A stretch of DNA of 42,499 bases from a phage. The notes beneath the pieces are model-generated. The model did not search any database. It was not told the origin of the DNA and saw only the letters and a list, made by a program, of their open reading frames with translations. The DNA lies in the sequence record OZ418230.1; one strand, 5' to 3'. Positions 737-32,156 of the stretch are shown here, one piece after another (position 1 is the stretch's first letter; the number at the start of each line of letters is the position of its first letter). Made by a program: the position numbers and the translations under genes.

Positions 737-4417
<3,681 letters not shown>

Positions 4418-19073: not shown

Positions 19074-21095
19074 ATGGCAGTACAGATTTCAGGTGTGCTG
19101 AAAGACGGTGCAGGAAAACCGATACAGAACTGCACCATTCAGCTCAAAGCAAAACGTAACAGCACCACAGTTGTGGTGAACACGGTGGCCTCAGAAAATC
19201 CGGATGAAGCCGGACGTTACAGCATGGATGTTGAGTATGGCCAGTACAGCGTCGCCCTGCTGGTTGAAGGTTTTCCGCCTTCACATGCCGGGACCATCAC
19301 CGTGTATGAGGATTCTAAGCCGGGGACATTGAATGATTTTCTGGGCGCTGCAACAGAAGATGATGTTTGTCCGGAGGCACTGTATCGTTTTGAAAAGATG
19401 GTGGAAGAGGCGGCACGCAACGCTGAAGCCGCCTCTCAGAGCGCAGCGGCAGCAAAGAAATCAGAAACAGCAGCGGCATCGTCCAGGAACGCGGCGAAAA
19501 CATCAGAGACGAATGCAGGTAACAGCGCGAAAGCGGCAGCTTCTTCAAAAACAGCCGCACAAAACGCAGCAACAGCGGCAGAACGTTCAGAGACAAATGC
19601 CCGTGCGTCAGAAGAAGCCTCCGCAGACAGTGAAGAGGCTTCCCGCCGTAATGCAGAGTCAGCCGCTGAAAATGCCGGAGTCGCCACCACAAAAGCGCGG
19701 GAGGCCGCAGCAGACGCAACAAAGGCCGGGCAGAAAAAGGATGAGGCTCTGTCGGCAGCGACACGAGCTGAAAAGGCGGCAGACCGCGCAGAAGCCGCAG
19801 CGGAAGTGACTGCAGAGCCCTGTGCGAATATAGTGCCGCCGCTGCCTGATGTGTGGATACCGTTTAACGATTCACTGGATATGATTACGGGTTTTTCGCC
19901 ATCTTATAAAAAGATAGTTATTGGTGACGATGAAATAACAATGCCAGGCGACAAGATTGTTAAGTTTAAACGTGCTTCAACAGCAACGTATATTAATAAG
20001 TCCGGCCAACTCAAGCTTGCTGAAGTTGACGAACCGCGATTTGAGCGCGATGGCTTATTGATTGAAGGACAGAGGACAAATTATCTGAGGAACTCAAATA
20101 AACCAGACTCATGGACTGTTCATTCCGCACTGAATAAAACATTTGGCACTGATAAACAGGGGTTCAATTATGCCACGGTGACACCCACGGAAAGTATAGT
20201 GGGAACAACAGGTGGCTATACTGTGCATGGTGTGGTTGCAGCAGACAGATTCCCGCTGGCAAGTGGTGAATGTTTCACTTTTTCGTGCCGGGTTAAAGGC
20301 GCTAAAGCACGATGCAGGTTAAGAGTTTCAGTTATTATTGGTGGAACAGATACCTTCTCTGCTGACTCTTATCTTGATCTGGATACCCGGATCGCAACAG
20401 TAAGCGGTAATACATCCCTTATAACAGCCAAAGCTGAACAACAGGGCGAGTGGACCTACTATGAGGCCACTTATACAGCTAATACGGACATTGATACCGT
20501 TAACTGTGCTTTTTATATGACAAATAAAATAAGTAATGAGCCATTCTATGATGACTCAACATTAACCATGACGACGCCGCAAATTGAACTGGGCAATACG
20601 GCATCGTCATTTATTGTAACTACAATGCCAACAACACGCGCAAGTGATGTAGTTACTATCCCATCGCAGAATAACCTGTCAACACGGCCTTTTACGGTAT
20701 TGTGCGAAGTAAGCAGGAACTGGAGTACACCGCCCAATGTTGCGCCAAGGATATTTGATGTTGGAGGGCACAGTATTGATGATAATTATTTATCGCTGGG
20801 GTTTGTTGCAACAGGAAAGATAAGCGCCAACGTAGGAATGGTTCAGCCACAAATTGCCTCAGATGGAGAAAGGTTCATTGTGGGTGTGAGAGCTAAATCT
20901 GATTTATCAGTAAATGCAATATGCAATGGTAATTATACAACAAACCTTAATGGTAAAATATTTGGAGTTACAGCAACATCGTACCGGTTTGGTGGGCAGA
21001 CCGCAGCAGGAACGCGTCATTTGTTTGGACACATCAGAAATTTCAGAGTCTGGTTTAAAGAATTAAATGACAGGCAAATCAAGGAGGCAGTATGA
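19074..21095 (+). CDS. stf: side tail fibre protein, mosaic (lambda Stf-like N-terminus, Ala-rich repeat region, divergent distal domain)
   Basis: N-terminal ~110 aa match lambda orf-401/Stf (MAVQISGVLKDGAGKPIQNCTIQLKA...); central A/S/E-rich repeats with recurring SETNA motifs; C-terminal ~420 aa not lambda-like and lower GC. Confidence 0.8.
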   Translation: MAVQISGVLKDGAGKPIQNCTIQLKAKRNSTTVVVNTVASENPDEAGRYSMDVEYGQYSVALLVEGFPPSHAGTITVYEDSKPGTLNDFLGAATEDDVCPEALYRFEKMVEEAARNAEAASQSAAAAKKSETAAASSRNAAKTSETNAGNSAKAAASSKTAAQNAATAAERSETNARASEEASADSEEASRRNAESAAENAGVATTKAREAAADATKAGQKKDEALSAATRAEKAADRAEAAAEVTAEPCANIVPPLPDVWIPFNDSLDMITGFSPSYKKIVIGDDEITMPGDKIVKFKRASTATYINKSGQLKLAEVDEPRFERDGLLIEGQRTNYLRNSNKPDSWTVHSALNKTFGTDKQGFNYATVTPTESIVGTTGGYTVHGVVAADRFPLASGECFTFSCRVKGAKARCRLRVSVIIGGTDTFSADSYLDLDTRIATVSGNTSLITAKAEQQGEWTYYEATYTANTDIDTVNCAFYMTNKISNEPFYDDSTLTMTTPQIELGNTASSFIVTTMPTTRASDVVTIPSQNNLSTRPFTVLCEVSRNWSTPPNVAPRIFDVGGHSIDDNYLSLGFVATGKISANVGMVQPQIASDGERFIVGVRAKSDLSVNAICNGNYTTNLNGKIFGVTATSYRFGGQTAAGTRHLFGHIRNFRVWFKELNDRQIKEAV

Positions 21096-21370
21096 AAGAT
21101 TTAACTTTGAAATTTCCTGGTAACAGAGAGTTTAAATCCTTCCTGTCATCTCTTGACTGGGAGGAGGATGAAGACCTCCAGAATAAACTGTTAGTCGATG
21201 AAATTGGTTTCACCTACACAGAAACAGGGGTAACAGAAGAGGGAGAACCTGTCTGTGTCCGGAATGACGGTTATTTTGTCAACATTCGCATTCTTGATGA
21301 CTTGTTTGATGTTTCTGTATTCTCTGATTATGTCGTGGAGCTGGAAACACCGCTTCGGGAATGGAGCTGA
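21092..21370 (+). CDS. small acidic hypothetical protein (possible tail fibre chaperone)
   Basis: 92-aa ORF with ATGA overlap on stf stop; no family recognised. Confidence 0.45.
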   Translation: MKDLTLKFPGNREFKSFLSSLDWEEDEDLQNKLLVDEIGFTYTETGVTEEGEPVCVRNDGYFVNIRILDDLFDVSVFSDYVVELETPLREWS

Positions 21371-21382
21371 AAGGAGGAAATA

Positions 21383-21610
21383 ATGGATATAAGCCCCTTA
21401 CTTCATGCACTTTGTGCTGTGGCTGCGCAGATACTGGTTGGTCTTTTTACCGGAAACTGGGCTTACGGAGCGATAGCCGGTTGTACGTTCTTCATTGCGC
21501 GTGAACATACCCAGGCAGAATATCGCTGGATTGAAATGTTCGGGCATGGCAAGCGAATGAATATGCCGTGGTGGGGCGGTTTTGATGTTACGCCATATGG
21601 GCTGGACTGA
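21383..21610 (+). CDS. hypothetical small hydrophobic protein
   Basis: 75-aa ORF with hydrophobic N-terminus; its last codons run into the icd-homologous segment in a different frame, so could be fortuitous. Confidence 0.3.
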
Positions 21611-21749
21611 AGCCGCAGACCTGATTGTTAAAGGTATGGAAGGCGCAATCAACGCCAAGACTGTAACCTATGACTTCGAACGTCTGATGGAAGGCGCTAA
21701 ATTGCTGAAATGTAGCGAGTTTGGCGACGCGATCATCAAGAACATGTAA
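21585..21749 (+). other. attP-associated substitute 3' end of host icd (isocitrate dehydrogenase)
   Basis: Open frame translating [54 protein letters not shown], near-identical to the E. coli Icd C-terminus; phages 21 and e14 integrate in icd. Confidence 0.8.
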
Positions 21750-21772
21750 TCACTACATGTGTTAAATATTTA

Positions 21773-21800
21773 AACGGGCGTGTTATACGCCCGTTGTTTT
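21773..21800 (+). terminator. rho-independent terminator following the icd 3' segment
   Basis: Stem aacgggcg/cgcccgtt with 7-nt loop followed by gtttt. Confidence 0.65.
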
Positions 21801-21815
21801 ATGATGATGTAAAAT

Positions 21816-21852
21816 CTTCCCCAAAACTTTCCCCAAAACCCTTCCCCAAAAC
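21816..21852. repeat. three tandem 12-13 bp direct repeats (c/t)ttccccaaaac; candidate integrase arm-type sites
   Basis: cttccccaaaac / tttccccaaaac / ccttccccaaaac in direct succession between the icd segment and the int 3' end. Confidence 0.6.
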
Positions 21853-21862
21853 TGGCTATTTT

Positions 21863-23005
21863 CTATGCTGTTTTGATATCTACGATAACCCAGTCTTTAC
21901 CACGATCATCATTGTATCGGTCGGTCATTTTTCTGGATTTATGGCCTAACAACTTTTGCGTATCCAGACCCTGTTCCCGATATAACCGTTCTGACAGAGA
22001 TCGCTGCTCATGAAATGTGGGCGCAGTTCCTTGCTCCCATTTTATGCCACATTTTTCCCTGGCCTTTTTAAAAGCCGTTGTCAGAGTATTTGCAGAAACC
22101 TGGTCTCCTCTGTTTGCTTGAGAGGTAGTGTGACGGTAATGGACCAGATATTTACTAACAACAGCATCCCTGCACTGAGATATAACTTCACGAAGGGTAA
22201 TATTCAGAGCATCGCATTTCAGGTTAAGCGGAATAGCAAGTTTTGAACCGGTTTTTTCCTGAGTAATGTGCAACATGTCGTCCCAGATATCAGAGAATTT
22301 CAAATTGCAGATATCACCTAAACGTTGTCCAGTAACAAGAGCAAGTAGCATGCCGCATTTTAAATAGGGCTGCCGTCTGCTTACGCTTTCAAATATTGCC
22401 TGCCATTCGGGCAGTGACAATCTTTGGCGGTTTACTCGATTTCGCGGTTGTTTTGTTGCCTGCGCTGGGTTAAATCCTGGCGGAACATGTCCTGCGTGTT
22501 GTGCTTCTTTGAAGACGTCGATCAACACCATTCTCACGACTTGCGCCATCCTGTTATGACCTTCAGCCTTTACAGCATCAATTATTTCGGCAATATCAAG
22601 TGCGGTAATATCCTTGAGGTGTTGCATTCCACAATGCTCACGGAAAAGACGAATGGGTTTGCCTTTTTGCCGATAGGAGTTGGGTCTTAGTTCATTATGT
22701 TGCAGCCTGTCCTCCTGGATAGAAATATATTTATCAAGCCATTCTGTCACCGTAATTTCTGAGCGCCTGCCTTTCATTCTTTCCAGACGCTCATTGACGC
22801 TTAATATTTGTCGGGTACGTTGTTCAGCAATAATGGTATTTGCTTCAGTAGCAACTTGTTTTGCTTCATTCTCATCAGTTCCTAAGCTATGAAAACGACC
22901 GGATAGTGGATGTTTGTATTGCCAATATACCTTTCCGGTTCGCTTATCTAATTTGCAATATAAATTGGGTATAGAGATTTTGTGAGATCGGGGTCTAGCA
23001 GCCAT
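21863..23005 (-). CDS. int: tyrosine integrase, phage 21/e14 (icd-targeting) type
   Basis: 380 aa with tyrosine-recombinase C-terminal region (…HEQRSLSERLYREQGLDTQKLLGHKS…); resembles e14 IntE from memory; adjacent to attP. Confidence 0.9.
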   Translation of the reverse strand: MAARPRSHKISIPNLYCKLDKRTGKVYWQYKHPLSGRFHSLGTDENEAKQVATEANTIIAEQRTRQILSVNERLERMKGRRSEITVTEWLDKYISIQEDRLQHNELRPNSYRQKGKPIRLFREHCGMQHLKDITALDIAEIIDAVKAEGHNRMAQVVRMVLIDVFKEAQHAGHVPPGFNPAQATKQPRNRVNRQRLSLPEWQAIFESVSRRQPYLKCGMLLALVTGQRLGDICNLKFSDIWDDMLHITQEKTGSKLAIPLNLKCDALNITLREVISQCRDAVVSKYLVHYRHTTSQANRGDQVSANTLTTAFKKAREKCGIKWEQGTAPTFHEQRSLSERLYREQGLDTQKLLGHKSRKMTDRYNDDRGKDWVIVDIKTA

Positions 23006-23231
23006 CAGCGATTATCCGTTGGAGTTTTGGGTTTGCGTTTATTGGGAGTTGCGGTTCTGCAAGCGTTCCTACAAAACGGGAATTTCGGTCAATCATCCAG
23101 TAGCGACCAACTTTTATAGCGGGTGGGGCCATCATTTTCCCTTGCGCGTATTTTTTCAGAACTCGCTCACTTGGTGCTAAGTCCCCAAATTCTTCTTTAG
23201 CCCAGTCCTGTAAAGTGATTAGTCGAGACAT
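22995..23231 (-). CDS. xis: excisionase
   Basis: 78-aa ORF overlapping int start by 11 bp, position typical of xis. Confidence 0.75.
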   Translation of the reverse strand: MSRLITLQDWAKEEFGDLAPSERVLKKYAQGKMMAPPAIKVGRYWMIDRNSRFVGTLAEPQLPINANPKLQRIIADGC

Positions 23232-23370
23232 TTGTCCTCCTCTTAGCTGCTGAGGGAGTTTGTGACCGATATATCTGACATGATATTAAGCTCATGGCAG
23301 GTACATCTCTTGACTGGTCATAGAGATAAATTTAATGCTGAGAAATGCAGTATTGAATTTATCAATTTTT

Positions 23371-23610
23371 CTATTTCCTGCGTATGGCACGTAACTTCTT
23401 AATGTGTTCTGCCGTTTCGATCTCTTCTGCTATCCGATCTGCATCAGCTTTATTCACAGGTTCAAAGTCATGATTAAAGCGGAACATGCTGGCGATACAT
23501 GTTCTGCCTTTTCGGATGTAGTGAACTTTGTTGTAGGTAGAACGCAGGATTTTGCAGGGAGTGCCGTGGTGGTCGACGTACCAGGTGTTAGGAAAAATGA
23601 TTCTGAGCAT
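23371..23610 (-). CDS. hypothetical protein
   Basis: 79-aa ORF in the distal pL operon; no family recognised. Confidence 0.4.
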   Translation of the reverse strand: MLRIIFPNTWYVDHHGTPCKILRSTYNKVHYIRKGRTCIASMFRFNHDFEPVNKADADRIAEEIETAEHIKKLRAIRRK

Positions 23611-23657
23611 TTTTACACCTCAGTTGGACGATGTTGAAATTTGCTGCTTTGAGGCCA

Positions 23658-23876
23658 TCACAATCCCCATTGTTTGTTCTTAAGTTCGATCTCCTCCTGG
23701 CAACTTGCACAAGTCCGACAACCCTGAACGACCAGGCGTCTTCGCTCATCTATCGGATCGCCACACTCACAACAATGAGTGGCAGATACAGTCTGGTAGT
23801 TCAGACGACGCATTTTTATTGCTGTATTGCGCTGTAATTCTTCGATTTCTGATGCTGAATCAATGATGTCTGCCAT
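23658..23876 (-). CDS. TraR/DksA-family C4 zinc-finger protein
   Basis: 72 aa with CxxC…CxxC (CCECGDPIDERRRLVVQGCRTCASCQ) typical of the TraR/DksA zinc ribbon. Confidence 0.6.
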   Translation of the reverse strand: MADIIDSASEIEELQRNTAIKMRRLNYQTVSATHCCECGDPIDERRRLVVQGCRTCASCQEEIELKNKQWGL

Positions 23877-23974
23877 CTTCCATTAATCCCTGAATTGTTG
23901 GTTAATACGCTTGAGGGTGAATGCGAATAATAAAAAAGGAGCCTGTAGCTCCCTGATGATTTTGCTTTTCATGT

Positions 23975-24274
23975 TCATCGCTCCTTAAAGACGCCGTTTA
24001 ACATGCCGATCGCCAGGCTTAAATGAGTCGGTGTGAATCCCATCAGCGTTACCGTTTCGCGGTGCTTCTTCAGTACGCTACGGCAAATGTCATCGACGTT
24101 TTTATCCGGAAACTGCTGTCTGGCTTTTTTGATTTCAGAGTTAGCTTGACGGGCAATGCTGCGAAGGGCGTTTTTCTGCTGAGGTGTCACTGAACAAGCC
24201 CCATGCCGGAAAGCATAAGCACACAGAATATGAAGCCCGCCGCCAGAAAAATGCATTCTGTTGTTGTCATGCAA
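23975..24274 (-). CDS. hypothetical protein
   Basis: 99-aa ORF, start uncertain (internal Met possible). Confidence 0.45.
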   Translation of the reverse strand: MHDNNRMHFSGGGLHILCAYAFRHGACSVTPQQKNALRSIARQANSEIKKARQQFPDKNVDDICRSVLKKHRETVTLMGFTPTHLSLAIGMLNGVFKER

Positions 24275-24458
24275 GCTCTCTCTCGTTTGCCTCTGCTTTC
24301 GCCGCCATCATTTCCAGCTTTTGTGAAAGGGATGCGGCTAACGTATGAAATTCTTCGTCTGTTTCTGCTGGTATTGGCACAAACCTGACTCCAATTTGAG
24401 CAAGGCTATGTGCCATCTCAATGCTCGTTCTTAACTCAACAGGAGATGCTTTGTGCAT
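24267..24458 (-). CDS. lambda Orf63-like small protein
   Basis: 63 aa ([23 protein letters not shown]…), matches my recollection of lambda orf63 and its position upstream of orf60a/exo. Confidence 0.6.
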   Translation of the reverse strand: MHKASPVELRTSIEMAHSLAQIGVRFVPIPAETDEEFHTLAASLSQKLEMMAAKAEANERELA

Positions 24459-24619
24459 ACAGCCCCTCGTTTATTATTTATCTCCTCAGCCAGCCGCTGG
24501 GCTTTCAGTGGATTTTGGATAACAGAAAGGCCGGGAAATACCCAGCCTCGCTTTGTAACGGAGTAGACGAAAGTGATCGCGCCTACCCGGATATTATCGT
24601 GAGGATGCGTCATCGCCAT
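24431..24619 (-). CDS. lambda Orf60a-like small protein
   Basis: 62-aa ORF overlapping the 3' end of exo as lambda orf60a does. Confidence 0.55.
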
Positions 24620-25290
24620 TGCTCCCCAAATACAAAACCAATTTCAGCCAGTGCCTCGTCCATTTTTTCGATGAACTCCGGCACCATCTCGTCAAAACTC
24701 GCCATGTACTTTTCATCCCGCTCAACCACGACATAATGCAGTCCTTCACGCTTCATACGCGGGTCATAGTTGGCAAAGTACCAGGCATCTTTTCGTGTCA
24801 CCCACATGCTGTACTGCACCTGGGCCATGTAAGCCGACTTTATGGCCTCGAAACCACCGAGCCGGAACTTCATGAAATCCCGGGAGGTAAACGGGCATTT
24901 CAGCTCAAGGCCATTGCCGTCACTGCATAAACCATCGGGAGAGCAGGCGGTGCGCATACTTTCGTCGCGATAGATGATCGGGGATTCAGTAACATTCACG
25001 CCGGAAGTGAATTCAAACAGAGTTCTGGCGTCGTTCTCGTACTGTTTTCCCCAGGCCAGCGCCTTAGCATTAACTTCCGGAGCCACACCGGTGCAAACCT
25101 CAGCCAGCAGGGTGTGGAAGTAGGACATTTTCATGTCAGGCCACTTCTTTCCTGAGCGGGGCTTTGCTATCACGTTGTGAACTTGTGAAGCGGTGATGAC
25201 GCCGAGCCGTAATTTGTGCCACGCATCATCTCCCTGCTCGATAGCTCTCACGTCGATCCCGGTACGCTGCAGGATAATGTCCGGTGTCAT
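24610..25290 (-). CDS. exo: lambda exonuclease (Red-alpha)
   Basis: 226 aa, near-identical to lambda Exo. Confidence 0.95.
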
Positions 25291-26072
25291 GCTGCCACCT
25301 TCTGTTCAGTGGCTTTTTGTTTCAGGAATCCAAGAGCTTTCACTGCTTCGTCCTGTGTCAGTTCTGACGATGCACGAATGTCGCGGCGAAATATCTGGGA
25401 ACAGAGCGGCAATAAGTCGTCATCCCATGTTTTATCCAGGGCGATCAGCAGAGTGTTAATCTCCTGCATGGTTTCATCGTTAACCGGAGTGATGTCGCGT
25501 TCCGGCTGACGTTCTGCAGTGTATGCGGTATTTTCGACAATGCGCTCGGCTTCATCCTTGTCATAGATACCAGCAAATCCGAAGGCGAGACGGGCACACT
25601 GAATCATGGCTTTATGCCGTAACATCCGTTTGGGATGCGACTGCCACGGCCCCGTGATTTCTCTGCCTTCGCGAGTTTTGAATGGTTCGCGGCGGCATTC
25701 ATCCATCCATTCGGTAACGCAGATCGGATGATTACGGTCCTTGCGGTAAATCCGGCATGTACAGGATTCATTGTCCTGCTCAAAGTCCATGCCATCAAAC
25801 TGCTGGTTTTCATTGATGATGCGGGACCAGCCATCAACGCCCACCACCGGAACGATGCCGTTCTGCTTATCAGGGAAGGCGTAAATTTCTTTCGTCCACG
25901 GATTAAGGCCGTACTGGTTGGCGACGATCAACAATGCGATGAACTGCGCATCGCTGGCATCACCTTTAAATGCCGTCTGGCGAAGAGTGGTGATCAGTTC
26001 CTGTGGGTCGACAGAATCCATGCCGACACGTTCAGCCAGCTTCCCTGCCAGCGTTGCGAGTGCTGTACTCAT
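25287..26072 (-). CDS. bet: Red-beta single-strand annealing protein
   Basis: 261 aa, lambda Bet. Confidence 0.95.
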
Positions 26073-26077
26073 CCGTT

Positions 26078-26494
26078 TTATACCTCTGAATCAATATCAA
26101 CCTGGTGGTGAGCAATGGTTTCAACCATGTACCGGATGTGTTCTGCCATGCGCTCCTGAAACTCAACATCGTCATCAAACGCACGGGTAATGGCTTTTTT
26201 GCTGGCCCCGTGGCGTTGCAAATGATCGATGCATAGCGATTCAAACAGGTGCTGGGGCAGGCCTTTTTCCATGTCGTCTGCCAGTTCTGCCTCTTTCTCT
26301 TCACGGGCGATCTGCTGGTAGTGACGCGCCCAGCTCTGAGCCTCAAGACGATCCTGAATGTAATAAGCGTTCATGGCTGAACTCCTGAAATAGCTGTGAA
26401 AATATCGCCCGCGAAATGCCGGGCTGATTAGGAAAACAGGAAAGGGGGTTAGTGAATGCTTTTGCTTGATCTCAGTTTCAGTATTAATATCCAT
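26078..26494 (-). CDS. gam: Gam, RecBCD inhibitor
   Basis: 138 aa, lambda Gam (long form). Confidence 0.95.
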
Positions 26495-26592
26495 TTTTTA
26501 TAAGCGTCGACGGCCTCACGAAACATCTTTTCATCGCCAATAAAAGTGGCGATAGTGAATTTAGTCTGGATAGCCATAAGTGTTTGATCCAT
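26449..26592 (-). CDS. kil: Kil (host cell-division inhibitor)
   Basis: 47-aa product [47 protein letters not shown] as lambda Kil; the track ORF 26449..26718 is an upstream extension. Confidence 0.8.
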
Positions 26593-26725
26593 TTTTTGGG
26601 ACTCCTGGCTGATTAAGTATGTCGATAAGGCGTTTCCATCCGTCACGTAATTTACGGGTGATTCGTTCAAGTAAAGATTCGGAAGGGCAGCCAGCAACAG
26701 GCCACCCTGCAATGGCATATTGCAT
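26561..26725 (-). CDS. cIII: CIII (FtsH inhibitor stabilising CII)
   Basis: Manual translation gives the 54-aa [54 protein letters not shown], lambda CIII; below the track length cutoff. Confidence 0.8.
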   Translation of the reverse strand: MQYAIAGWPVAGCPSESLLERITRKLRDGWKRLIDILNQPGVPKNGSNTYGYPD

Positions 26726-26797
26726 GGTGTGCTCCTTATTTATACATAACGAAAAACGCCTCGAGTGAAGCGTTATTGGTATGCGGTAACGCCGCGC

Positions 26798-27166
26798 TCA
26801 GGCGGCTTTGATAGTCATATCATCTGAATCAAATATTCCTGATGTATCGATATCGGTAATTCTTATTCCTTCGCTACCATCCATTGGAGGCCATCCTTCC
26901 TGACCATTTCCATCATTCCAGTCGAACTCACACACAACACCATATGCATTTAAGTCGCTTGAAATTGCTATAAGCAGAGCATGTTGCGCCAGCATGATTA
27001 ATACAGCATTTAATACAGAGCCGTGTTTATTGAGTCGGTATTCAGAGTCTGACCAGAAATTATTAATCTGGTGAAGTTTTTCCTCTGTCATTACGTCATG
27101 GTCGATTTCAATTTCTATTGATGCTTTCCAGTCGTAATCAATGATGTATTTTTTGATGTTTGACAT
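26798..27166 (-). CDS. ea10: Ea10 protein
   Basis: 122 aa matching lambda Ea10. Confidence 0.9.
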   Translation of the reverse strand: MSNIKKYIIDYDWKASIEIEIDHDVMTEEKLHQINNFWSDSEYRLNKHGSVLNAVLIMLAQHALLIAISSDLNAYGVVCEFDWNDGNGQEGWPPMDGSEGIRITDIDTSGIFDSDDMTIKAA

Positions 27167-31256: not shown

Positions 31257-32156
31257 ATGACAAATACAGCAAAAATACTCAACTTCGGCAGAGGTAACTT
31301 TGCCGGACAGGAGCGTAATGTGGCAGATCTCGATGATGGTTACGCCAGACTATCAAATATGCTGCTTGAGGCTTATTCGGGCGCAGATCTGACCAAGCGA
31401 CAGTTTAAAGTGCTGCTTGCCATTCTGCGTAAAACCTATGGGTGGAATAAACCAATGGACAGAATCACCGATTCTCAACTTAGCGAGATTACAAAGTTAC
31501 CTGTCAAACGGTGCAATGAAGCCAAGTTAGAACTCGTCAGAATGAATATTATCAAGCAGCAAGGCGGCATGTTTGGACCAAACAAAAACATCTCAGAATG
31601 GTGCATCCCTCAAAACGAGGGAAAATCCCCTAAAACGAGGGATAAAACATCCCTCAAATTGGGGGATTGCTATCCCTCAAAACAGGGGGACACAAAAGAC
31701 ACTATTACAAAAGAAAAAAGAAAAGATTATTCGTCCGAGAATTCTGGCGAATCCTCTGACCAGCCAGAAAACGATCTTTCTGTGGTTAAACCGGATGCTG
31801 CAATTCAGAGCGGCAGTAAGTGGGGAACAGCAGAAGACCTGACCGCCGCAGAGTGGATGTTTGACATGGTGAAGACCATCGCGCCATCAGCCAGAAAACC
31901 GAATTTTGCTGGGTGGGCTAACGATATCCGCCTGATGCGTGAACGTGACGGACGTAACCACCGCGATATGTGTGTGCTTTTCCGCTGGGCCTGCCAGGAC
32001 AACTTCTGGTCCGGTAACGTGCTGAGTCCGGCCAAACTCCGCGACAAGTGGACCCAGCTCGAAATCAACCGTAACAAGCAACAGGCTGGCGTGACAGCCG
32101 GAAAACCAAAACTCGACCTGACAAACACTGACTGGATTTACGGGGTGGATCTATGA
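31257..32156 (+). CDS. O: replication initiator O
   Basis: 299 aa, near-identical to lambda O. Confidence 0.95.
   Translation: MTNTAKILNFGRGNFAGQERNVADLDDGYARLSNMLLEAYSGADLTKRQFKVLLAILRKTYGWNKPMDRITDSQLSEITKLPVKRCNEAKLELVRMNIIKQQGGMFGPNKNISEWCIPQNEGKSPKTRDKTSLKLGDCYPSKQGDTKDTITKEKRKDYSSENSGESSDQPENDLSVVKPDAAIQSGSKWGTAEDLTAAEWMFDMVKTIAPSARKPNFAGWANDIRLMRERDGRNHRDMCVLFRWACQDNFWSGNVLSPAKLRDKWTQLEINRNKQQAGVTAGKPKLDLTNTDWIYGVDL
31605..31730. other. origin of replication: four ~18-20 bp iterons plus adjacent AT-rich region inside O
   Basis: Repeats of the form atccctcaaaacgaggga (four copies, 31605..31690) followed by an A/T-rich tract. Confidence 0.85.

Follow-up and report, generated by a model that had tools for sequence, protein, structure and literature searches.

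The int-proximal exo-xis segment of a phage-21-like coliphage carries an Orf73/TraR-type zinc-finger gene and a DUF4222 gene

Introduction

The accessory genes that lambdoid phages carry between exo and xis have been studied at length, among others by the Wegrzyn and Donaldson laboratories, and a mechanism has been described for one of their products. Lambda Orf73 binds RNA polymerase (RNAP) and inhibits rrnB P1 and ribosomal-protein promoters independently of ppGpp, and its function depends on residues D3 and D6, as seen with D3A/D6A mutants (Gopalkrishnan et al. 2022, mBio, PMC9239242). It slows host growth and increases phage yield 3–4-fold, and it activated none of the promoters tested (PMC9239242). 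According to the same paper, the report of a second laboratory has yield changing in the other direction (PMC9239242). For Orf61, encoded nearby, pro-lytic deletion phenotypes are on record (PMC8614690; PMC6213356). Residues 24–93 of its 93-aa form have been modelled as homeodomain-like; the AlphaFold and RoseTTAFold models placed the N-terminal helix differently, and the three-helix fold on which they agreed was analysed from residue 24 (PMC8614690).

A further small-protein family of integrated mobile elements, DUF4222, has a single studied member, RgdR (ECs1581) of EHEC (Flockhart et al. 2012, PMC3378721). It is an activator of LEE1 and a repressor of motility whose DNA binding is weak and non-specific, and an RGD tripeptide is reported to be important for its activity (PMC3378721). 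Here we analyse a segment of three small ORFs and its surroundings in a phage genome (sequence record OZ418230.1), of which the window, that is, the whole stretch of DNA analysed, comprises 42,499 nucleotides. The segment brings together relatives of Orf61, Orf73 and RgdR.

Results

A segment of the lambdoid exo-xis region

Judged by its sequence, the segment comes from a temperate coliphage of the phage 21 kind and makes up the half of the lambdoid exo-xis accessory region that lies nearest int. Nucleotides 23200–24650 are 100% identical to coliphage 1H12 (a Jouyvirus and relative of phage 21) and to ten sibling records, and matches to this stretch occur in 185 phage records. The exact proteins of the block are found on at least 1,000 public contigs; the novelty implied by a first-pass annotation of this DNA is therefore not borne out, and the block is an ordinary example of a known and much-studied region. 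All three ORFs which that annotation had proposed were recovered in place on the minus strand, and sequence criteria mark them as genuine genes, not fortuitous reading frames (Table 1). They have Pfam or PHROG matches (PHROG families 285, 54 and 303, E 1e-25 to 1e-41), and their variable sites are biased towards codon position 3, at 11/20 for the DUF4222 gene (p 0.04), 25/42 for orf73 (p 4e-4) and 17/24 for the orf61 core (p 2e-4).

Table 1. Features of the segment and its surroundings, with positions in the window
Feature	Position	Strand	Evidence and remarks
Integrase, next after the excisionase	21863-23005		
Excisionase, phage 21 type, directly downstream of the block	22995..23231	-	Pfam Exc and phrog_629; annotation of 1H12 and phage 21
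DUF4222-xis spacer, 139 nt, two hairpins	23232..23370	-	Nearly invariant in six phages
DUF4222 protein, 79 aa, basic (pI 9.9), last gene before xis	23371..23610	-	Pfam PF13973
Orf73 orthologue, 72 aa, TraR-family C4 zinc-finger factor, predicted to act in the RNAP secondary channel	23658..23876	-	89% identity to lambda Orf73; PF01258
31-aa ORF, MNMKSKIIRELQAPFLLFAFTLKRINQQFRD	23883..23978	-	Identical in lambda; AAGGAG Shine-Dalgarno sequence 8 nt upstream
Intrinsic-terminator-like hairpin, GGGAGC-loop-GCUCC, then UUUUUUAUUAUU	23936..23954	-	Inside the 31-aa ORF, between orf61 and orf73
99-aa ORF, TTG start	23975-24274	-	Longest-ORF call
Orf61 core, 71 aa, GTG start at 24190, basic (pI 10.4)	23975..24190	-	phrog_303, E 8e-36
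27-aa hydrophobic ORF, MTTTECIFLAAGFIFCVLMLSGMGLVQ, GRAVY 1.64	24187..24270	-	
orf63 homologue (DUF1382), context gene	24267..24458	-	Pfam PF07131, E 8.6e-31
orf60a homologue (DUF1317), context gene	24431..24619	-	Pfam PF07026, E 6.6e-40
Terminator-like hairpin in the orf60a homologue	24549-24527	-	

Read along the minus strand, the genes follow one another as exo, orf60a, orf63, the 27-aa ORF, orf61 (71 aa), the 31-aa ORF with a hairpin inside it, orf73 (72 aa), the DUF4222 gene (79 aa), xis and int. An N-like antiterminator gene, cIII/kil, gam, bet and exo precede the block in the same orientation, and in phage 1H12 an N-like gene, cI, cro and cII likewise lie upstream of it. This synteny agrees with the early expression proposed in the first pass, and by analogy with lambda, leftward transcription of the block would start at pL. 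Terminator-like hairpins precede it, and its expression would therefore probably require N-mediated antitermination. A search for a promoter of the block's own found sigma-70 sites to be no commoner than in shuffled sequence, with none suitably placed on the minus strand. An Rfam E-value scan of positions 21000–27000 located the cIII thermoregulator RNA at 26680–26738, outside the three-ORF segment, and no other structured RNA.

Orf60a, orf63, orf61, the 31-aa ORF and orf73 occur in the same order, at 91% nucleotide identity or more, in the exo-xis regions of lambda, phage 21 and Stx phages. The gene order here is that of phage 21, except that phage 21 has an ASCH-domain gene between orf73 and the DUF4222 gene, and it is that of lambda up to orf73. 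The five-gene exo-xis set (orf60a, orf63, orf61, orf73 and ea22) is thus incomplete: its first four members are present in order and ea22 is absent, a tblastn search of an identical locus returning no ea22 match. Ea8.5 and orf55 of lambda are absent as well, and the slot that these three genes occupy in lambda is filled by the DUF4222 gene alone. All three small ORFs had been read as replacements for ea8.5 and ea22; this description fits the 79-aa ORF, whereas the 72-aa and 99-aa ORFs are the counterparts of orf73 and orf61, both of which are found upstream of ea22 in the lambda genome as well. What comes after orf73 differs by phage, being DUF4222, ea22, ASCH or other genes. The shortened arrangement, in which orf73 is followed directly by DUF4222, is common to 1H12, 3W and Perceval and was found at 36 of the 94 orf61-carrying loci surveyed.

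An orthologue of lambda Orf73

The 72-aa protein is 89% identical to lambda Orf73 over 71 residues. It passes the Pfam domain zf-dskA_traR (PF01258; 36.2 bits against a cutoff of 24.9, E 5.9e-9), which upholds its earlier assignment to the TraR/DksA type, and its best PDB sequence matches are the TraR entries 5w1s (E 2e-5) and 6n57. The C4 zinc ribbon recognized in the first pass is formed by C35-x2-C38-x17-C56-x2-C59, which align with the cysteines of TraR and are invariant or near-invariant among 34 homologues. The DxxDxA motif is also present (M-A-D3-I-I-D6-S-A8); in the same 34 homologues D6 and A8 never vary, D3 is kept in at least 90%, and R46/R47, which align with TraR R48/R49, show conservation of at least 90%. 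Scores against the NCBIfam TraR models fell below their curated cutoffs (TIGR02419, 52.9 against 59.7; PRK13715 for conjugal TraR, 27.8 against 108), indicating a phage Orf73-type homologue rather than an equivalog of plasmid TraR. An AF2 model of moderate quality (pLDDT 68, pTM 0.38) comprises a helix at residues 8–27, the zinc region and a second helix at 57–69. Foldseek ranked YbiI first for this model, followed by TraR (5w1s and 6n57, second and third) and DksA, at a probability of 0.93–0.98; the TM score to TraR was only 0.43.

Similarity to lambda Orf73 extends to gene position (after orf61 and the 31-aa ORF), length, the DxxDxA motif, the four zinc cysteines, the RR pair and two additional cysteines, C36 and C53. 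The two proteins differ in the C-terminal tail, which is EEIELKNKQWGL here and EDLELISKQRGSK in lambda; W70 is shared with the closest relatives of the 72-aa protein, where most homologues have arginine. The genes differ in their downstream neighbour, ea22 in lambda and DUF4222 here. With F-plasmid TraR (5W1S and 6N57) and with YbiI/DksA the protein shares the Pfam domain, at an identity of about 30%, and as modelled it would also share the succession of N-terminal helix, zinc ribbon and C-terminal helix. It is, however, phage-encoded and has no counterpart of the long coiled coil found in DksA. TraR also activates transcription, whereas lambda Orf73 inhibited promoters and did not activate those tested (PMC9239242).

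The identity to lambda Orf73 and the conserved functional residues suggest that the 72-aa protein acts in the manner of lambda Orf73 and F-plasmid TraR. The binding to the RNAP secondary channel suggested in the first pass is experimentally established for lambda Orf73 (PMC9239242). By analogy, the N-terminal helix with its DxxDxA motif would enter the channel, the globular zinc-ribbon domain with R46/R47 would contact the beta' rim helices and Si3, and the C-terminal helix would contact Si1 of the beta lobe. The protein would then inhibit rRNA and ribosomal-protein promoters without ppGpp, slowing host growth and diverting resources so that more phage is made. Of the two functions put forward in the first pass, host takeover fits these properties of Orf73, which in lambda go along with a slower host and a burst 3–4-fold higher.

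The orf61 gene and the ORFs that flank it

The 99-aa ORF is the orthologue of lambda orf61, which is frameshifted in lambda and intact here. Both this ORF (to 24274) and the 93-aa RefSeq call (to 24256) are N-terminally extended forms of the 71-aa Orf61 core. The TTG start is used in none of the database annotations fetched, which give either 93 aa from ATG 24256 (1H12, YYZ-2008, phage 86 and Perceval) or 71 aa from GTG 24190 (phage 21, 3W, ev243, mEp332 and F723). The lengths first proposed stand for the 79-aa and 72-aa ORFs and need revision for the third, where the substitution pattern favours 71 plus 27 aa. The 27-aa frame, which is kept in lambda, begins with an ATG overlapping the orf63 stop (ATGA) and ends with a stop overlapping the GTG of the 71-aa gene (GTGA). 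Across 46 haplotypes it has 7 synonymous-only and 6 amino-acid-changing variable codons, compared with 1 and 9 in the N-extension frame (Fisher p 0.07), and the common polymorphisms are all synonymous in the 27-aa frame and amino-acid-changing in the extension frame. This pattern suggests that the 99-aa ORF consists of two coupled genes, and the 27-aa frame is probably the true coding frame of what is usually taken as the N terminus of Orf61.

The competing reading, a single protein of 93–99 aa as in RefSeq with the 27-aa ORF as a chance overlapping frame, is in our view doubtful, though it deserves weight. A length of 93 aa is annotated by RefSeq and by several submitters, the PHROG 303 profile covers the extension, and statistical support for the 27-aa frame reaches only p ~0.07. 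The opposite distribution of synonymous changes in the two frames speaks against a single protein, as does the want of a Shine-Dalgarno sequence at ATG 24256; the overlaps at ATGA and GTGA, in contrast, are in keeping with translational coupling. In addition, other annotators give 71 aa, and the published models of the 93-aa form disagree on the N-terminal helix and agree on a fold analysed from residue 24, the residue next to that of the GTG codon (23). The search for divergent relatives yielded only loci with 99–100% protein identity in viral contigs and nothing more divergent in genome contigs, where most matches were lambda-type; three flanks checked at 100% identity, from Shewanella, Pseudomonas and Oceanobacillus assemblies, were lambda DNA itself. 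The frame test consequently stays at p ~0.07.

On the coupled-gene reading, the 71-aa Orf61 is a small basic protein that is predicted, from the published models, to be homeodomain-like (PMC8614690). Its 71-aa form bears the PGAP name "cell division protein ZapA" in many E. coli records, an identity that we rejected on its Pfam PF05164 score of 13.6 bits (cutoff 23.8, E 0.088). NCBIfam gave no match to Orf61 at E <=0.01.

By position and length, the 31-aa ORF between orf61 and orf73 appears to correspond to lambda orf2313, which a passage of a review describes as detected by ribosome profiling (PMC8614690). Its substitutions among the 46 haplotypes carry no clear coding signal, falling at position 3 in 6 of 16 cases, and its start codon is ATG in 25 haplotypes, GTG in 19 and GTT in 2. 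The first-pass annotation overlooked this ORF. A literature search for tL3 returned no relevant match.

A DUF4222 protein in the family of RgdR

The 79-aa protein passes Pfam PF13973 (DUF4222) with 66.5 bits against a cutoff of 27 (E 1.5e-18), covering profile positions 1–53 of 53. Its AF2 model (pLDDT 90.9) shows a five-strand SH3/Tudor-like barrel and a C-terminal helix at residues 54–78. RgdR belongs to the same Pfam family (82 bits, E 2e-23) and is 22% identical to the protein in the window. Both are small, basic products of early-region genes of integrated mobile elements; in the case of RgdR the element is O-island 51, a PICI, of EHEC O157:H7. They differ in length, 99 aa for RgdR against 79 aa; the protein in the window lacks the N-terminal extension and also the RGD tripeptide, with N8-T9-W10 at the aligned position. 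The gene settings differ too, since rgdR adjoins a primase gene and the DUF4222 gene here adjoins xis and int.

A DUF4222 profile search of 1.84 billion representatives found only 46 clusters, with no distant annotated relatives beyond the Pfam family. The family has a narrow distribution, in prophages of Enterobacterales, and its gene is often directly coupled to a TraR-like one. Such a pair, with the TraR-like gene as the immediate upstream neighbour, occurs in the Klebsiella phage ST101-KPC2phi6.1 (DUF4222 ~45% identical) and also in the loci of two divergent family representatives. DUF4222 without an adjoining TraR gene occurs in P27-like phages and at 4 of the 7 loci examined for divergent representatives, so that the orf73-DUF4222 pairing may reflect only a shared int-proximal position.

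The DUF4222 protein thus stands in the family of a pleiotropic transcription modulator encoded by prophages and PICIs, and it would most likely modulate host or phage transcription by binding nucleic acid or a partner protein. RNA polymerase is a docking site for the Tudor domains of UvrD, PcrA, CarD and Mfd. A more specific proposal, that DUF4222 is a new kind of SH3/Tudor-like modulator of host transcription that acts on RNAP or a nucleoid protein and forms a two-protein takeover module with Orf73, is speculative, and we hold it to be quite improbable.

Discussion

Collectively, these results lead us to read the segment as part of an exo-xis region that encodes an RNAP factor of the Orf73/TraR type, an Orf61 predicted to be homeodomain-like and a DUF4222 protein that is a likely transcription modulator, with a probability of roughly 0.78. 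The readings weighed against it assign other functions to the small proteins. It is unlikely that the host cell cycle is the block's main target (the "bin" effect of the lambda orf73-ea22-ea8.5-orf55 segment, blocked host replication initiation) with DUF4222 substituting for ea22, ea8.5 and orf55. Earlier work, as mentioned in a passage of PMC9239242, ties orf73 and three adjoining lambda genes to inhibited initiation of host replication, and the DUF4222 gene sits at the exact lambda position of the three genes that it would replace. However, a tblastn survey gave no cross-hits between DUF4222 and Ea22, Ea8.5 or Orf55, and the ZapA label on Orf61, at 13.6 bits, lends this reading no support.

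Slightly less probable still is anti-defence, the other function proposed in the first pass, in which at least one of the small proteins, with DUF4222 and Orf61 as the foremost candidates, would inhibit host restriction, abortive infection or another immune system instead of modulating transcription. The block consists of small, early accessory genes at a mosaic, often-swapped position, as is typical of counter-defence loci, and DNA methyltransferases occupy the corresponding stretch in Klebsiella and Salmonella relatives. Yet we found nothing that points to such a role. PADLOC returned no match for any of seven ORFs, which is weak negative evidence because its library holds defence rather than anti-defence proteins; structural comparison matched no known anti-defence protein above noise; RgdR, the studied member of DUF4222, regulates gene expression (PMC3378721); and Orf73 has a demonstrated RNAP mechanism (PMC9239242). 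The least probable reading gives DUF4222 an accessory part in site-specific recombination, where it would partner Xis and Int as a directionality or architectural factor; this would account for its constant position beside their genes. The DUF4222 gene lies within ~0.2–1 kb of xis or int in 119 phage records, its spacer to xis is almost unchanged across phages, and the protein is basic, with RgdR binding DNA weakly (PMC3378721). Against this, rgdR in the EHEC island is several genes from int, this DUF4222 subfamily is found together with integrases of at least three types (those of phage 21, of SfI/ev243 and of Stx phage), and lambda and many other phages excise without DUF4222.

For the exo-xis region as such, our reading as an Orf73-type RNAP factor, Orf61 and a likely transcription modulator adds little: the region is known, and the zinc-finger gene is orthologous to one whose protein had its mechanism published in 2022 (PMC9239242). 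What may change is the picture of orf61. The gene usually annotated as 93 aa and named "ZapA" by PGAP probably consists of two genes with coupled translation, one for a hydrophobic peptide of 27 aa and one for a protein of 71 aa, which matters wherever "Orf61" of lambda or Stx phages is deleted or modelled. The DUF4222 protein, as a relative of the EHEC virulence regulator RgdR, is a cheap and well-defined experimental target, and a modulator role for it, if true, would also account for the pleiotropic effects of RgdR on EHEC virulence genes.

The exo-xis block and its setting

The three small ORFs lie between exo and the xis and int genes, oriented like bet, gam and kil, in a block known in the literature as the exo-xis region (PMC8614690). 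Over window positions 23200-24650, coliphage 1H12 (Jouyvirus) and ten siblings match at 100% identity, and 185 phage records at 90% or more; phage 21 has the same layout plus one extra gene. Because the upstream genes in 1H12 include an N-like antiterminator, cI, cro and cII, and because the window carries a Lambda_thermo (cIII thermoregulator) element (Rfam; 88.5 bits, E = 3e-21), the block lies, by synteny, distally in the leftward early (pL) operon.

All three ORFs are real genes, as indicated by strong family matches (DUF4222, E = 1.5e-18; zf-dskA_traR, E = 5.9e-9; PHROGs 285, 54 and 303) and by variable sites among homologous copies that cluster at the third codon position in the proposed frames. 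The first-pass annotation had placed them where lambda carries ea8.5 and ea22, which holds for the 79-aa gene only: it alone takes the slot of lambda ea22, ea8.5 and orf55, and the 72-aa and 99-aa ORFs are orf73 and orf61. The observation was confirmed in part, and its functional interpretation is likewise partly supported.

[quoted passage not shown]
Feature	Position	Strand	Remark
55-aa ORF	21582-21749	plus	next to int
int	21863-23005	minus	
xis	22995-23231	minus	
Spacer, 139 nt	23232-23370		DUF4222 stop to xis start
DUF4222 protein, 79 aa	23371-23610	minus	ORF call
Orf73-type protein, 72 aa	23658-23876	minus	ORF call
31-aa ORF	23883-23978	minus	between orf61 and orf73
Terminator-like hairpin	23954-23936		inside 31-aa ORF
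"99-aa" ORF	23975-24274	minus	ORF call, TTG start
71-aa Orf61	23975-24190	minus	GTG start
27-aa hydrophobic ORF	24270-24187	minus	upstream of GTG, overlapping
Terminator-like hairpin	24549-24527	minus	inside orf60a
exo	24610-25290	minus	
Lambda_thermo element	26680-26738	minus	

The 72-aa protein is of the Orf73 type

The 72-aa protein has all the sequence features by which TraR homologues are recognised, bearing out the proposed TraR/DksA-type C4 zinc ribbon: an N-terminal D3-x-x-D6-x-A8 motif, zinc cysteines spaced C35-x2-C38-x17-C56-x2-C59, R46/R47 aligned with TraR R48/R49, and the C-terminal helix. Its best PDB sequence matches are TraR-RNA polymerase complexes (5w1s, 6n57) and YbiI. Lack of the fold had been named as grounds for rejecting the assignment; the AlphaFold model, although moderate (pLDDT 68), shows the expected order of helix, zinc region and helix, and Foldseek ranks YbiI, TraR and DksA first with it, so this ground for rejection does not arise. 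Since scores fall below the curated cutoffs of the NCBIfam TraR models, the protein is, as judged from its sequence, an Orf73-type homologue and not an equivalog of plasmid TraR. It shares 89% identity, including two extra cysteines, with lambda Orf73, a 73-aa product whose gene lacks annotation in the reference lambda record NC_001416.

Purified lambda Orf73 binds RNA polymerase, inhibits rRNA and ribosomal-protein promoters as efficiently as TraR, complements a dksA-null strain, slows host growth and raises phage yield 3-4-fold in a manner that needs D3 and D6 (Gopalkrishnan et al., PMC9239242). The 72-aa protein would work by the same mechanism.

orf61 as a probable pair of coupled genes

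The 99-aa ORF corresponds on sequence to lambda orf61. The lambda copy (L002, the NC_001416 locus, 3013-3325) has one extra base after the equivalent of window position 24131 and is split into two frames, and ev207 (L006) has a 4-nt deletion at the equivalent of 24104-24107. Public annotations divide between a 93-aa protein from ATG 24256 and a 71-aa protein from GTG 24190. Upstream of the GTG lies a 27-aa hydrophobic ORF (MTTTECIFLAAGFIFCVLMLSGMGLVQ) whose ATG overlaps the orf63 stop (ATGA) and whose stop overlaps the GTG (GTGA).

We compared the two frames across 46 distinct haplotypes of the region from 77 loci. Variable codons in the 27-aa frame comprised 7 with synonymous changes only and 6 with amino-acid changes, against 1 and 9 in the N-terminal extension of the 93-aa call, a contrast that is suggestive only (p about 0.07); all common polymorphisms were silent in the 27-aa frame. 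A search upstream of ATG 24256 found no Shine-Dalgarno sequence. Published AlphaFold and RoseTTAFold models of Orf61 agree on a three-helix core but not on the placement of the N-terminal helix, and analysis of the core began at residue 24 in 93-aa numbering (PMC8614690); in the same numbering the GTG 24190 codon is residue 23. The 27-aa ORF is also conserved in lambda. On the basis of the haplotype pattern, the missing Shine-Dalgarno sequence, the start of the modelled core and this conservation, we favour reading orf61 as two coupled genes encoding 27 aa and 71 aa (probability roughly 0.6).

The 71-aa product is basic (pI 10.4) and has been modelled as homeodomain-like (PMC8614690). Deletion phenotypes of orf61 are reported (PMC6213356), and Donaldson's review groups it with the pro-lytic exo-xis genes (PMC8614690). 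In many E. coli genomes, and in RefSeq phages, the NCBI pipeline (PGAP) labels it "cell division protein ZapA"; with a Pfam score of 13.6 bits (cutoff 23.8) and no NCBIfam match, that name looks like over-annotation.

The 31-aa ORF is identical in lambda, and from its position and length we take it to be orf2313, a 31-aa peptide which, according to a review, was detected by ribosome profiling of lambda (PMC8614690). It has a strong Shine-Dalgarno sequence, contains an intrinsic-terminator-like hairpin with a U-run, and shows a substitution pattern with no clear coding signature. A second, GC-rich hairpin within orf60a (lambda equivalent about 31265-31287) is probably, we assume, the lambda tL3 terminator, which is kept after exo in pKD46-type Red plasmids.

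The DUF4222 protein and alternative functions

DUF4222 is a narrow family (46 clusters when 1.84 billion representative proteins were searched with a profile), its named sources in a protein search being Escherichia, Citrobacter, Enterobacter and Salmonella. The 79-aa protein is basic (pI 9.9), with a confident AlphaFold model (pLDDT 90.9) of a five-strand small β-barrel followed by a 25-residue C-terminal helix. The one studied member, RgdR (ECs1581) of the EHEC O-island 51 PICI, acts positively on LEE1 and type III secretion and negatively on motility; its binding to DNA is weak and non-specific (PMC3378721, PMC10877973, PMC6092414). The two share a Pfam family but only 22% identity, and the window protein lacks the RGD motif.

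Three loci have a TraR-like gene directly upstream of DUF4222, with a 0-4-nt gap: one in Klebsiella phage ST101-KPC2phi6.1, whose DUF4222 protein is about 45% identical, and those of P0118 and P0120, which are divergent representatives of the family. The distance is one gene in a Salmonella P22-like phage; DUF4222 directly follows orf73 in 36 of 94 orf61-carrying loci, and also occurs without TraR nearby. Our best guess is that the DUF4222 protein may be a small transcription modulator acting through a protein or nucleic-acid partner.

An accessory role for Xis and Int would suit the position of the gene: it adjoins xis or int in the phage records whose annotation was compared, and among the int-first prophage records listed, most have their match at about 1.4-2.5 kb, in keeping with the same position. 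This role is nevertheless very improbable, being at odds with RgdR and with the range of integrases found alongside the gene. For the small proteins generally, a block to host replication or the cell cycle, as in the lambda "bin" phenotype, is improbable given that Orf73 barely affects dnaA (PMC9239242). The anti-defence role suggested by the first-pass annotation drew no positive evidence from a search against PADLOC, a library of defence proteins, and is improbable.

Annotation and flanking sequence

Annotation of the exo-xis block is inconsistent across databases. The 1H12 RefSeq record cuts DUF4222 to 38 aa, and phage PhiR47_2 (PV340567, locus L015, 363-738) has two plus-strand ORFs annotated over minus-strand DUF4222 and TraR-like genes. 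A Logan contig (SRR32407042_102909, locus L130, 1113-1817) carries tandem DUF4222 paralogues of 80 and 84 aa with a 75-aa ORF between them. The 72-aa metagenome protein P0104 joins a TraR/Orf73 N-terminal helix (first ~25 residues, MDIIDTAAEIEELQRNAALSAHRI) to the C-terminal half of DUF4222, presumably through a deletion fusing two adjacent genes. The DUF4222-xis spacer has 3 variable columns in a 161-column alignment of six phages; nucleotide identity in the adjoining DUF4222 gene falls to 93% among full-length copies compared. Two hairpins are predicted in this nearly invariant spacer: an AT-rich 16-pair stem directly after the DUF4222 stop, and a second stem-loop with a z-score of -2.3.

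The 55-aa ORF encodes the C-terminal end of isocitrate dehydrogenase (Icd), a hallmark of phage 21/e14-type attP sites, where integration into icd restores its 3' end; the phage 21 annotation has the same fragment and marks attP. Around window positions of about 20000-21586, window and 1H12 (NC_049947) are 100% identical on both sides, with int-proximal homology beginning only at 21586. The coordinate offset is -12 at 20000 and +5538 at 23200, so the stretch from the tail-fibre region to attP is about 5.5 kb longer in 1H12. Matches to lambda-type orf61 (the 211-nt frameshifted form) at loci L101-L114, in assemblies labelled Shewanella, Bradyrhizobium, Pseudomonas, Paenibacillus, Oceanobacillus, Kitasatospora and others, are almost certainly lambda control-DNA contamination; three compared 5.2-kb flanks are 100% identical to lambda and a fourth 99.4%, and several matches lie on contigs of ~48.4-48.5 kb.

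The region has been described before: identical copies are available, annotated, in public databases, and the orthologue of its zinc-finger protein has been characterised. The two small residual points are the DUF4222 subfamily and orf61 as a probable 27 + 71 pair of genes.
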